47,767 nt of DNA from Escherichia coli (GTDB lineage Bacteria > Pseudomonadota > Gammaproteobacteria > Enterobacterales > Enterobacteriaceae): the NCBI GenBank assembly GCA_024546615.1, contig GCA_024546615.1_5040.1. The stretch is one strand, 5' to 3'. Below the pieces are notes generated by a model. That model did no database searches. It worked only from the letters and a program-made list of their open reading frames with translations, and was not told where the DNA came from. Both the position numbers and the translations under genes were made by a program. This document shows, one piece after another, positions 30,428 to 33,828 of this stretch; position 1 is the stretch's first letter; each line of letters starts with the position of its first letter.

Positions 30428-30656
30428 ATTTAACAACCTCTTTATCTCGTAATTCATTGCGCTCCCGCTGTGCTTCCAGCAGTGCTATATCTTTGTCGTT
30501 CAGTTCAGTCTGGAGGTTGTCACGCTTTTTGACGAGGGTTTTATACTCTTCAAAGTCATCCAGCTTGACCGCATTTTTACCCGAAAAATAACCCATAGCA
30601 TACACTGCAACCATTATGCTACCGATTACCCCGGCGAGTATCACGTTGCGCATCAT
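30318..30656 (-). CDS. i-spanin (Rz-like)
   Basis: N-terminal TM (VILAGVIGSIMVAVYAMG) then charged coiled-coil region; ATGA overlap with endolysin stop. Confidence 0.55.
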   Translation of the reverse strand: MMRNVILAGVIGSIMVAVYAMGYFSGKNAVKLDDFEEYKTLVKKRDNLQTELNDKDIALLEAQRERNELRDKEVVKYVTVYRDRIKDPGIAECVRNSGLLDVYDATVSTPGE

Positions 30657-31216
30657 TTCTCCCCCAGTGTATACAGGCACAAATACTCCTCCTGTTCCCG
30701 GCGAATTGGCTGTCCGGAACAGTTGTTACTTTTAATGCGGCAGTCTTTACCGCCATCGAATACCCAACGTGGGATCTGTTTGCACGCATTCTTCCAGTCG
30801 CCTTTTTGCAGCAACTTAAAGAATGTTGACCCCTTACATTTGGTAGGTCCGATATTGTATGGACAGAACGATGCGATGCCGACCTGTTGCACCGGGTTCA
30901 GTTTTACCGGAATATTCTCACGTACCCACTGTAACGACTTCTGTGCTTCTTTATCGTTCAGAAGGTCACACTGCTTTTCGGTAAGTCGCATACCCTTTGT
31001 CACCGGCTTACCATCGATGCGCGTCACACCCCGGCAGATGGTCCAGATACCTCTACCGTCCTGGTACGCAGTGGTGCGATTACCTTCTTTCTCGTTCAGA
31101 AATTGATTAAACAGGTCCGTTTGTGTGACCACTCCGCCCCCTAATGCAAATACTGCGAGGAGTGCCGTCATTTGCTTACTTAAAGGATTTTTCATTTTGT
31201 TACACTCGTTGTACAA
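30653..31216 (-). CDS. Endolysin, T4-lysozyme-like glycoside hydrolase with N-terminal SAR-like hydrophobic segment
   Basis: EGNRTTAYQDGRGIWTICRGVT catalytic-region motif; N-terminal MTALLAVFALGGGVV; true start may be ATG 31195. Confidence 0.75.
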   Translation of the reverse strand: MYNECNKMKNPLSKQMTALLAVFALGGGVVTQTDLFNQFLNEKEGNRTTAYQDGRGIWTICRGVTRIDGKPVTKGMRLTEKQCDLLNDKEAQKSLQWVRENIPVKLNPVQQVGIASFCPYNIGPTKCKGSTFFKLLQKGDWKNACKQIPRWVFDGGKDCRIKSNNCSGQPIRREQEEYLCLYTLGEK

Positions 31217-31268
31217 TTAAGCTTAATCCTAACATACAAAGGCGACAAAATGTACAAGACTAAACCAC

Positions 31269-31333
31269 GTAAAGCAGGTGACGCGGGCGGTGCATGTATT
31301 AAGCCCCGTGGTAAAGCAGGTGACGCGGGCGGT
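31269..31333. repeat. Two 23-bp direct repeats GTAAAGCAGGTGACGCGGGCGGT with 42-bp period
   Basis: Exact repeat at 31269-31291 and 31311-31333; lies within small ORF 31250-31360. Confidence 0.8.
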
Positions 31334-31363
31334 TCCAAAGTAAAACGCCGGACCAAATAAACA

Positions 31364-31774
31364 ATGTACACCTTCCTGATTGCCTCACTAATCGTCAGAC
31401 CCCGGAGAGCCTCGTTTCTCTTCGTGCTGGTGGCAACTCTCTTTCAGGAGTTATGTGGTAATCTGGATGGTTCGATTTATTTTTTCCTCGCCGCATTTTG
31501 TGATTTCATCGTAGCCGGTGTTCTGTACCATTTCGGAACATCCCGGAAGTCTCTCGACATGATGCTTATCAGCATTGTTTCCATGTCGATTAATCTGACA
31601 GGCTGGCTCCTGTGGTTTTTCTATCAACCGCTCGATGTCTATGTGGCAATGTTCACGGTGCTATACTGTGCGGCAATCCTCACGATACTGAAAAAGGATA
31701 GTGACGATGCTGGAGGTATTGCGGTTCATATCGACAACTCTGGTCATCATCCTTATGCTGGCGCAGGTCGTTGA
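31364..31774 (+). CDS. Multi-pass membrane protein (136 aa)
   Basis: Four hydrophobic segments; divergent from lysis genes. Confidence 0.45.
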   Translation: MYTFLIASLIVRPRRASFLFVLVATLFQELCGNLDGSIYFFLAAFCDFIVAGVLYHFGTSRKSLDMMLISIVSMSINLTGWLLWFFYQPLDVYVAMFTVLYCAAILTILKKDSDDAGGIAVHIDNSGHHPYAGAGR

Positions 31775-32082
31775 GTGGTACATCAAAGCGAGAAAACATT
31801 ATGAGCTTTACCGGAAACACACAGGTCGGAACGGCAGTGGCAAGCGGGACGACTGTGACGGGTCTAATGACTAAGTATAACATCACCCCGGAAACTATCG
31901 GTATCTTCGCAACACTAGTGGGTATCGTACTTTCTCTGGTGATGATTTACGGCCACATAAAGCGTATCAGAAATGAATCGGCGGAACGCAAGGAAAAGGA
32001 AGCCATTGCAAGAATTGAAAAGGAAAAGGCAGAGATTGAACTTGCTGAAATGCGCCGAAGGATGAACAACCCGGCGCAGTGA
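31771..32082 (+). CDS. Membrane protein with single TM and charged coiled-coil C-terminus (holin candidate)
   Basis: TM IGIFATLVGIVLSLVMIY then ERKEKEAIARIEKEKAEIELAEMRRR. Confidence 0.4.
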   Translation: MSGTSKRENIMSFTGNTQVGTAVASGTTVTGLMTKYNITPETIGIFATLVGIVLSLVMIYGHIKRIRNESAERKEKEAIARIEKEKAEIELAEMRRRMNNPAQ

Positions 32083-32100
32083 TGCGCCGGTATTCTTGTT
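32071..32100. terminator. Bidirectional terminator hairpin CCGGCGCA-GTGA-TGCGCCGG plus T-rich tail
   Basis: Between convergent genes ending at 32082 (+) and 32099 (-). Confidence 0.55.
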
Positions 32101-32346: not shown

Positions 32347-32375
32347 ACTCTAAACTACTTTGACGCACTCGTCAA
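32347..32375 (-). promoter_or_regulatory. Sigma70-like promoter TTGACG-17-TAGAGT overlapping palindrome TTGACGCACTCGTCAA (32360-32375), embedded in 3' end of upstream gene
   Basis: Spacing read directly. Confidence 0.5.
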
Positions 32376-32948
32376 CGGTAAAACTAACTTTTCTGCTTCC
32401 TGAATGTACCAGTCGTAATTCAGTGCTCCCCAGTCGAAGTCTTTAGCGTCGGCACACTCTGTCACCTTCCATCCTGCACACATACTTGTTTCGCGCACTG
32501 CATCGTGCTTACTGCGACTCTTCGTGTGGATACGCTCGTCCCACGGTGTACCAATGCTGTCGAGGTCGCCCGGTTGACCTGTAATCTCACGCATTACCGC
32601 ATTGTACACATCGTCCTTGACACCATTCTTACGCTTCCATGTACCTGGTGTACCAGTGGGCGGTAACAGCTTGACCAGTGACCCACCGTTACGCGAGATA
32701 AATACACGTGTGGTATTCTGCATCTCCTGTTCAGCGCCCCACTCAGGCCAACGCATCACCAGACGTGCCGAACGAGGTACTTTGGCGCGCAGCATGAAGT
32801 CGAACGGGTCACGGTGCTGCGTGATGAACGTGCGGATGTCAGTGTCAAACAGAAGTGCGGCTTCAGCGGCGCGGGCAACAATCATCGCCGATGGGTCTTG
32901 ATGCCACTGGTATTTGTACTCGTAACACCCTTTTCTTTTAATTTTCAC
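32355..32948 (-). CDS. Hypothetical protein (197 aa) sharing GTPWDERIH motif with 37785-38834
   Basis: Motif DSIGTPWDERIHTKS versus DSTGTPWDERIHSTS in the 349-aa protein. Confidence 0.45.
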   Translation of the reverse strand: MKIKRKGCYEYKYQWHQDPSAMIVARAAEAALLFDTDIRTFITQHRDPFDFMLRAKVPRSARLVMRWPEWGAEQEMQNTTRVFISRNGGSLVKLLPPTGTPGTWKRKNGVKDDVYNAVMREITGQPGDLDSIGTPWDERIHTKSRSKHDAVRETSMCAGWKVTECADAKDFDWGALNYDWYIQEAEKLVLPLTSASK

Positions 32949-33828
32949 GGGTTGCCTCCAGCATTTCTAAAATTCGATTGTCCCATTTCAACCATTCGGT
33001 ACAACCATCAAAACCAGATAGTCCAGCATTAACGAAAGAAGAATGAGTTAGTTTTTCGATAAATTCCATTTTTCCACCTATGCCAGATAAAACTCGGAGT
33101 AACTGAAAATCAAATGGCGTACTTCTTTTCAATTTCCTCAAGCGATATTTATAATTATTGCTGATACCGACCTTCATATATTCCCCACCTTTGGAAGCAA
33201 GTACATAAAGGGAAGCCATCTGGTTACGTTTAAATCCACTCTTAGAACAGTCTTGACATCCTTGTCCACCGGATACGTGATCTATAGCCAATTTTTCAAA
33301 ACTACCGTGAACAGGGCAAATTATCTTTATTTTATGATGATTACCTTTATATTGAGATTCCGAATAATCATACTTATCCCCATGTACTGCGCGGGCTTTC
33401 TCAATCCATTCTTCGGTGTTATAAAGAGGAAGTCGTCCTTTTCCAGGACCTCCTGCGCATTTCGCGCACCCGTGGCCTTTTAGATGATTGCCGGCTAATT
33501 GGAGGAATTCCCCATGCTCTCGACAAATGATTATTATTTCTGAATGTCGTTTTTTATACTTAACCTTCGAATAATCATACTTATCTCCATGTACTGCACG
33601 GGCTTTCTCAATCCATTCTTCAGTGCTGGATTTTTTTGTCCCACCACAAACTGGGCAGCCGGAACCAGAACAGTGAGACGTGGGTTCTTGTCGGAAATCT
33701 CCATGCAATCGACAAACAATGGTCACTTTATGTTTTGAAGTACGATACTCGACCTTCGAATAATCATACTTATCTCCGTGTACCGCACGGGCTTTCTCAA
33801 TCCATTCTTCTGTGTTCAATCTTCTCAT
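32938..33828 (-). CDS. Homing-endonuclease-like protein: three tandem zinc-ribbon modules plus C-terminal T5orf172 (GIY-YIG-like) domain
   Basis: Three repeats of EEWIEKARAVHGDKYDYS...; C-terminal YVLASKGGEYMKVGISNNYKYRLRKL...GCTEWLKW; contains three ~55-bp DNA direct repeats. Confidence 0.6.
   Translation of the reverse strand: MRRLNTEEWIEKARAVHGDKYDYSKVEYRTSKHKVTIVCRLHGDFRQEPTSHCSGSGCPVCGGTKKSSTEEWIEKARAVHGDKYDYSKVKYKKRHSEIIIICREHGEFLQLAGNHLKGHGCAKCAGGPGKGRLPLYNTEEWIEKARAVHGDKYDYSESQYKGNHHKIKIICPVHGSFEKLAIDHVSGGQGCQDCSKSGFKRNQMASLYVLASKGGEYMKVGISNNYKYRLRKLKRSTPFDFQLLRVLSGIGGKMEFIEKLTHSSFVNAGLSGFDGCTEWLKWDNRILEMLEATREN

Follow-up and report, generated by a model that had tools for sequence, protein, structure and literature searches.

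Translational coupling, in which ribosomes terminate and then re-initiate at stop and start codons that lie near each other or overlap, is found in bacterial and phage operons. Two kinds of short peptide are also relevant to the locus described here: the SecM and ApdA-type RAGP/RAPP arrest peptides, which combine a C-terminal motif ending in Pro with an N-terminal export or insertion segment, and the disruptin of phage phiKT (gp28), an amphipathic helical cationic lysis peptide that replaces the spanins. In this work, we analyzed a 36-codon open reading frame (ORF), hereafter the micro-ORF, which carries two copies of a 23-base-pair (bp) direct repeat and precedes a gene for a membrane protein of 136 amino acids (aa). 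It lies in a stretch of 47,767 nucleotides (nt), contig GCA_024546615.1_5040.1 of the GenBank assembly GCA_024546615.1, deposited under Escherichia coli, and "the window" refers below to this whole stretch, which is a Jedunavirus-like Klebsiella/Escherichia myophage. Our analysis indicates that the 23-bp repeat likely reflects, at the DNA level, a repeat within the peptide encoded by a genuine small gene that heads a lysis-associated operon.

The 23-mer GTAAAGCAGGTGACGCGGGCGGT occurs exactly twice, at 31269-31291 and 31311-31333 on the plus strand, with a start-to-start distance of 42 nt, or 14 codons; both positions and the period agree with the original prediction made from the letters of the window. 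A third copy was not found in the 47.8-kb window on either strand when up to three mismatches were allowed, and 100 dinucleotide-preserving shuffles gave 0 matches to such a repeat. Tandem Repeats Finder reported nothing for the region because the copies are interspersed and not head-to-tail. Both copies lie inside the micro-ORF (31250..31360, plus strand), which consists of 36 codons and a TAA and encodes the peptide MYKTKPRKAGDAGGACIKPRGKAGDAGGSKVKRRTK. The first copy covers the last two nucleotides of the Arg7 codon followed by K A G D A G G (residues 8-14), and the second the last two nucleotides of the Gly21 codon followed by the same seven amino acids (residues 22-28). Only the triplet ACA separates the TAA (31358-31360) from the ATG of the membrane-protein ORF at 31364, and the translation matches exactly the 36-codon frame ending 3 bp before that ATG which had been proposed. 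The repeats had also been assigned to the intergenic space of a divergent lysis region. A divergent endolysin gene does lie upstream, but the true non-coding gap between its start and that of the micro-ORF is only 54 nt, and the repeats sit in coding sequence.

Matches to the region 30600-32100, with identities of 84-94%, were found in 70 phage records, most of them Klebsiella phages, the others being the Escherichia phages ZCEC13 and CWW26 and the Pectobacterium phage PEAT2. Our set of relatives comprised 14 loci from GenBank and 14 from IMG/VR, which together with the window make 29 Jedunavirus/Peatvirus loci. The micro-ORF is intact in all 29, with lengths of 18, 30, 33, 36, 38, 41 or 45 aa, and all insertions and deletions are multiples of three. 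Every locus keeps the ATG, the MYKTK head and a stop codon 2-3 nt ahead of the ATG or GTG of the membrane gene, and most retain the basic tail KVKRR[T/A/S]K; PEAT2 ends in KVKPKPKTK. The order of divergent endolysin, micro-ORF and phrog_15451 membrane gene is the same in all of them.

Variation in the alignment falls mainly on the third codon position, with 18, 11 and 34 variable columns of 41 for positions 1, 2 and 3, respectively. In the indel-free class of 36 codons, 16-17 variants are synonymous and 10 non-synonymous, compared with 82 and 242 possible ones (Fisher p = 9e-5), and the ratio of non-synonymous to synonymous change comes to 0.21; in these genomes, the adjacent 136-aa gene has a ratio of 0.22. 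These codon patterns indicate that the peptide is under purifying selection comparable to that on the neighboring gene. Frame-preserving indels, a synonymous excess and conserved start and stop codons are all as expected of a protein-coding sequence, with the caveat that an antisense frame shares the wobble positions. The peptide also matches the hidden Markov model of phrog_32836 (E = 3.5e-22, 79 bits, residues 1-36 against profile positions 6-41 of 41), and by this match the micro-ORF is a member of a catalogued family without an assigned function. It is annotated as "hypothetical protein" in CWW26, ZCEC13, KpV79, KpV52, SCNJ1-Y, BUCT_49532 and RCIP0045, and is unannotated in SBP, Geezett, JD001, 1611E-K2-1 and RCIP0015; about half of the related GenBank records that we inspected omit it. 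Its conservation in the relatives, the mode of its variation, the family match and these annotations support, at the sequence level, the earlier suggestion of a basic repeat-containing micro-protein or leader ORF. If translated, it would be a well-conserved phage micro-protein of fewer than 40 aa, and annotation pipelines are inconsistent in calling proteins of this class.

The original prediction had also proposed a comparison of repeat number among related phages; in these relatives, the peptide unit proved to be kept and the perfect DNA repeat to be absent. The sequence in the relatives is GTAAAGCAGGTGACGCCGGTGGR for copy 1 and GTAAAACMGGTGACGCGGGCGGT for copy 2; the two agree at 11-20 of 23 bases and differ mostly at wobble positions, and the peptide unit K[A/T]GDAGG is retained despite the divergence of the DNA. 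Identity of the two copies at 23 of 23 bases is found in the window only, that is, in one of the 29 loci. Relative to its closest relatives, the window has three wobble changes in copy 1 (GCC GGT GGR to GCG GGC GGT) and, in copy 2, a single substitution that turns ACA (Thr) into GCA (Ala); all four bring the copies into identity. Since all four changes homogenize the copies, they bear the signature of gene conversion, and a short-tract conversion between the two coding repeats would most simply explain the perfect repeat. Wobble states that are common to both copies in other genomes, namely GAT in L008 and L028 and GGC GAT in L021, suggest that conversion between the copies recurs. The number of units is also variable: L026 has a single one, L021 has three that contain AGG, and in the JD001 clade the second unit is truncated. 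We propose that unit number grows and shrinks through slippage or unequal recombination and that occasional gene conversion homogenizes the units, which would have produced base-perfect copies in this genome only. A perfect short DNA repeat can therefore mark concerted evolution in a coding repeat and not an array of binding sites.

The micro-ORF is preceded by a Shine-Dalgarno (SD)-like AAAGG (31238..31242, plus strand), 7 nt before its ATG, with an anti-SD binding energy of -4.2 kcal/mol. An SD is always present in the relatives (GGG, GAGGA or GGCGG), with energies from -4.2 to -8.1 kcal/mol. For the membrane gene, the sole SD-like element is a GGA at -14 to -12, 11 nt from the ATG (-3.2 kcal/mol), which has been lost by synonymous changes in L009 and L011 (0.1 kcal/mol) and is lacking in PEAT2 (L006/L016, -1.0 kcal/mol); in L014 and L021 the gene starts with GTG. 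As judged from these sequences, the membrane gene is without a conserved SD. The stop-start junction TAA-ACA-ATG (31358..31366, plus strand), which we propose as a site of termination and re-initiation, has a gap of 3 nt in 28 of the 29 loci and of 2 nt in L021. In other phage groups that carry an analogous micro-ORF, the gap is 2 nt (MSW-3-type), -1 nt (TAATG, Iodovirus-type) or 6 nt (Vibrio-type). A read-through fusion of the micro-ORF with the membrane protein was considered and rejected: the two are in frame here, but the gap of 2 nt or -1 nt in other lineages is not compatible with such a fusion. The leader mRNA (31224-31420) folds more weakly than all 200 of its dinucleotide-preserving shuffles (z = +2.69), which suggests selection for an open leader.

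From these features we infer that the micro-gene is translated, that its translation is coupled to that of the membrane gene and that the peptide has a function in trans. The micro-gene would be the first cistron of a short plus-strand unit, followed by the genes for the 136-aa membrane protein and for a 93-aa holin-like protein. Ribosomes would load at its own SD and ATG on the unusually unstructured leader, stop at the TAA 3 nt before the AUG of the membrane gene (GUG in some relatives) and re-initiate there, and the translation of the membrane protein would thus be tied to that of the micro-gene. We also observed three copies of the palindrome TGTACA in a span of 160 bp (31210, 31251 and 31365): one lies across a -10-like TACAAT and the others in the two start contexts (AATGTACA). 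The micro-ORF product and the membrane protein both start with Met-Tyr, and the three sites are invariant in the relatives; genome-wide, there are 24 TGTACA sites against 17 +/- 4 expected.

The micro-peptide has a mass of 3.7 kDa, an isoelectric point of 10.8 and a net charge of about +9.5, and it is rich in Gly and Ala. It is built of units of about 14 residues, KPR(G)K[A/T]GDAGGxxV, placed between the MYKTK head and the KVKRRTK tail. It has no hydrophobic segment (Kyte-Doolittle maximum -0.33), and its AlphaFold model shows no secondary structure, with a predicted local distance difference test (pLDDT) score of 58; the peptide is thus predicted to be intrinsically disordered. Searches of Pfam, NCBIfam and PDB sequences with the micro-peptide and with the 136-aa membrane protein returned nothing. 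Profile searches with the micro-peptide gave 11 matches in 5.8 billion proteins and 6 in 1.84 billion representatives, with no informative distant relatives among them; all came from the same phage groups, except for a weak match to a 695-aa protein (P0053, E = 9e-4). In trans, the peptide would probably have an accessory role in lysis control by acting on an anionic partner on the cytoplasmic side of the membrane; candidate partners are phospholipid, the acidic tail of the membrane protein and nucleic acid.

Homologs of the 136-aa protein were found in other phages at 21-51% identity (tblastn and profile search), and in several groups the same slot is occupied by a basic micro-ORF. Edwardsiella phage MSW-3 has there ORF-45, MAKKPVKDAGGRGKTRVTDAGGRGKTRVTDAGGRGKTRKGK, with three perfect 33-bp repeats and a stop 2 nt before the membrane gene. 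The Iodovirus-type contigs encode MRPIRAGGQGKTRPAQASVPAQKSIPGKDAGGQGKQRPK or a three-unit version of 51 aa, with a TAATG that overlaps the start of the membrane gene, and in the Vibrio 367.14-type phages a peptide beginning MEKRAAGGRGQQRQRRRAPLP ends 6 nt upstream of the membrane gene. These analogs are basic and have 1-3 units of the form xAGGxGKxR, whose numbers vary independently, and they belong to phrog_36947 or to no family. By its sequence, the repeat expansion in the Edwardsiella-phage lineage is independent. The peptides of MSW-3 and of the Iodovirus type resemble each other well beyond composition shuffles (z = 6.9). Common to the window peptide and the analogs are position, size, charge, the architecture of the repeats and the tetrapeptide DAGG, which arises in about 1% of composition shuffles. 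On this sequence evidence, we regard the micro-ORFs of other genera as positional analogs and possibly as homologs.

Two side observations concern the records of these analogs. In the Edwardsiella-phage lineage (L030 1858-1983; L034 1364-1498; P0045), metagenomic relatives of MSW-3 differ from it in their repeats: in one, a distinct duplication of 42 bp takes in the start codon, and another has two units only. In Iodobacter phage PhiPLPE (L033, NC_011142, approximately 1850-1967), the micro-ORF is split across two frames at a run of seven A, and the record annotates an 89-aa ORF (phiPLPE_66) that runs into the membrane gene and mis-frames the micro-ORF. Intact 39-aa versions are present in metagenomes (P0048, L038-L040), and the sequence comparison suggests that a homopolymer sequencing error, or slippage, affects the reference record.

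The finding that analogous micro-ORFs precede this membrane gene in at least four groups of phages is a modest new point, as are the architecture and concerted evolution of the repeat units and the coupling hypothesis. It is conceivable, if doubtful, that the micro-ORF and its Edwardsiella, Iodobacter and Vibrio analogs form one family of repeat-built, disordered, polycationic micro-proteins that are functional third or fourth components of a holin-like module, made up of the micro-protein, the five-helix membrane protein and the small holin-like protein, and regulate the timing of lysis in a dosage-tunable way. If this were true, the peptide could bind anionic lipid or the membrane protein's acidic tail and so act as an antiholin or an activator, and repeat number would be an evolvable timer.

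Several observations weigh against the reading of the micro-ORF as a genuine peptide gene with counterparts in other genera. A literature search gave no ribosome profiling, proteomics or genetics for these phages. The metagenomic relative L026 retains just 18 codons, without DAGG. The membrane gene is present without such a micro-ORF in vB_KsaM-C1 and in CP-T1, and the peptide is therefore not universally required. Compared with the peptides of MSW-3, Iodovirus and Vibrio phages, the window peptide scores z = 0.1-0.9, not above composition-matched shuffles, and the case for homology across genera is built on the shared position and composition, the architecture of the repeats and DAGG. Finally, the wobble positions shared with the antisense frame mean that third-position bias and the ratio of synonymous to non-synonymous change alone cannot assign the strand.

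The lack of DAGG units in L026, the entire absence of the micro-ORF from vB_KsaM-C1 and a similarity between genera no greater than composition predicts also favor a pure cis-acting leader ORF, translated only to bring ribosomes to the SD-less start of the membrane gene. Its peptide would be functionless, and the basic, Gly-rich composition would follow from selection for an A/G-rich unstructured mRNA. The significantly unstructured leader fits this alternative, as does a length that ranges from 18 to 45 codons with only the head, the tail and the position of the stop being fixed. However, the micro-ORF has the substitution ratio of the bona fide gene next to it, and the amino acids of the repeat unit are retained while the wobble bases vary. 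The similarity between the MSW-3 and Iodovirus peptides is specific to residue order, and the DAGG motif recurs across genera. In view of these points, we consider a leader with a functionless peptide quite unlikely.

The strand itself can also be questioned, as the minus strand carries a 59-aa ORF (31371..31192) of which the micro-ORF might be the shadow. The strand statistics are uninformative here because the two frames share their wobble positions: the antisense frame has 16 synonymous and 11 non-synonymous changes, nearly the 17 and 10 of the plus frame. It is open in 28 of the 29 loci, its TGA overlaps the ATG of the endolysin as ATGA, and it has been annotated once, in ZCEC13. Against these points, the frame is broken by a stop in L021, and the JD001 clade (RRAYIVY) has a non-start codon in place of the GTG start of this frame. 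A PHROG match was obtained for the plus-strand micro-ORF but not for the antisense frame. The Iodovirus-type loci lack a divergent endolysin, and L038 and L039 have stops in the antisense frame; the plus-strand micro-ORF is nevertheless retained in these loci. An open antisense frame with shared wobble positions is, moreover, expected opposite a stop-free ORF of GC-rich codons. The 59-aa frame is, on these comparisons, most likely a shadow ORF, and a gene on the opposite strand is very unlikely to account for the locus.

Iteron-like sites, the second reading offered by the original prediction, do not hold up. Two perfect copies 42 bp apart (about four helical turns), close to divergent promoters and with a chance expectation of essentially zero, could be DNA to which a phage or host protein binds to control the divergent lysis promoters. 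Perfect copies are, however, confined to this genome; in the 28 relatives, the copies share the 11-20 bases noted above and differ at synonymous sites, copy number and spacing shift in multiples of 3 nt, no further copy of the 23-mer exists in the genome, and the analogs of other genera retain the peptide motif and not the DNA sequence. Given the wobble variation and the in-frame change in unit number, we reject an iteron or operator as highly improbable. A structured RNA leader, in which the repeats would act as an attenuator, riboswitch or small RNA for the membrane gene, is extremely improbable, since the GC-rich repeat cores in the 5' region and the 6-bp pairing of the two UGUACA start-codon contexts proposed by RNAalifold are outweighed by a leader minimum free energy weaker than that of every shuffle, by a covariation term of -0.55 kcal/mol with compensatory change in 3 of 29 pairs and none in the long-range UGUACA helix, and by an Rfam search with nothing in the micro-ORF region at E <= 1 and two sub-threshold chance hits outside the ORF, none with E < 0.4.

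The divergent endolysin (Phage_lysozyme, phrog_7) occupies 30656..31195 on the minus strand, with its ATG at 31195, and is followed on that strand by two spanin genes, for an inner-membrane and an outer-membrane component (phrog_8821 and phrog_16495). Its N-terminus (31123-31195, minus strand), MKNPLSKQMTALLAVFALGGGVV, is weakly hydrophobic and rich in Gly and Ala, as is typical of signal-arrest-release (SAR) endolysins; a SAR-type endolysin would fit the 93-aa protein as a pinholin-type holin. Upstream of the micro-ORF, a consensus scan gave a candidate sigma-70-like promoter (31189..31217, plus strand) with TTTTCA, a 17-nt spacer and TACAAT. The candidate -10 element lies within the conserved block GTTGTACAAT, and the block TGTACAAT is invariant in all 29 loci and present in vB_KsaM-C1 too. 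The Iodovirus-type loci have a comparable -10-like element ahead of their analogous micro-ORFs. Promoter activity is putative, and the motif around GTTGTACAATTA has no other occurrence in the window as a repeated phage promoter.

Downstream, the 136-aa membrane protein (31364..31774, plus strand) belongs to phrog_15451, whose function is unassigned. Its AlphaFold model has five helices and a disordered C-terminal tail (pLDDT 74), sequence prediction gives 4-5 helices, and a structure search of BFVD with this model returned uncharacterized homologs only. It is followed by the gene for the 93-aa holin-like protein (31801..32082, plus strand; phrog_13707), which has weak matches to holin PHROGs and is annotated as "holin family protein" or "holin" in BUCT_49532 and vB_KsaM-C1. 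This protein has one strong transmembrane (TM) segment, a weakly hydrophobic N-terminal segment rich in Gly, Ala and Thr, and a charged coiled C-terminal tail. A GC-rich hairpin at 32071..32090, terminator-like on both strands, closes the plus-strand cassette. The holin of Jedunavirus has been reported as "not identified" (PMC10276810), and our literature search found no functional work on the micro-ORF or on this holin. The micro-ORF is otherwise an ordinary uncharacterized small gene; it heads the only candidate holin operon of the Jedunavirus phages, which are in development for Klebsiella therapy.

Three further ORFs of the neighborhood deserve mention. A 55-aa ORF (31707-31874, plus strand), beginning MLEVLRFISTTLVIILMLAQVVEWYIKARKHYELY, lies in the third frame and spans the junction of the two downstream genes, covering the 3' end of the 136-aa gene and the beginning of the 93-aa holin-like gene. 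No stop interrupts this frame in any of the 29 loci. Its N-terminal TM segment is nearly invariant (V/A/I swaps only), while the tail of the 136-aa protein that it overlaps is variable in length and predicted to be disordered. Its SD is the best of the operon (AAGGA, -5.4 kcal/mol), it is annotated by ZCEC13 only, and it possibly encodes a fourth small membrane component of this cassette. On the minus strand, a 296-aa ORF (32938-33828) contains three tandem copies of about 45 aa (including EEWIEKARAVHGDKYDYS, with Cys-x2-Cys pairs) and a C-terminal T5orf172/MUG113 domain, by which it resembles a homing endonuclease. The adjoining 197-aa ORF (32355-32948, minus strand) corresponds to the C-terminal part of the DNA polymerase, which is one continuous gene in CWW26 and is split in KpV79 and RCIP0045.

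With regard to known systems, the locus can be compared with each of those mentioned at the outset. Like disruptin, the micro-peptide is a small cationic product of a lysis gene cluster. A disruptin-like function was rejected, given that the peptide lacks a hydrophobic face and a predicted helix and that a two-component spanin pair is present. An arrest peptide of the SecM or RAPP type was likewise rejected: the RAGG/DAGG motifs have no Pro, and there is no hydrophobic N-terminal segment. Iterons and operator repeats are, like the 23-mers, short direct DNA repeats near divergent promoters; the repeats described here differ from them in not being conserved as DNA, in lying inside a conserved ORF, in being two in number and in having no association with an origin or a rep gene.

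Coupled cistrons offer a closer comparison, as the micro-ORF has its own SD and stops 3 nt before the start of a downstream gene that lacks a conserved SD and in some genomes begins with GTG. Here, however, the upstream micro-ORF is also under selection at the level of the peptide, and the coupling is deduced from the sequence. The analogs (phrog_36947/MSW-3 ORF-45, Iodovirus-type and Vibrio 367.14-type) share the slot immediately ahead of the homologous gene for a multi-helix membrane protein and of a holin-like gene. Their lengths are 30-51 aa, and they are strongly basic and rich in Gly, with 1-3 tandem (D/R)AGG units and a stop at -1 to +6 nt from the next start, and they differ in the unit, which is xAGG(R/Q/N)GK(T/Q)R compared with KxGDAGGxxV in Jedunavirus. 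The closest counterparts are the coding sequences of phrog_32836 (kpv52_49, kpv79_50, gp48 of BUCT_49532 and XOL08052 of CWW26), which have the same position, MYKTK head, KVKRRTK tail and repeat unit, and from which this genome differs in its base-perfect copies and in the Ala that replaces Thr in the second unit.

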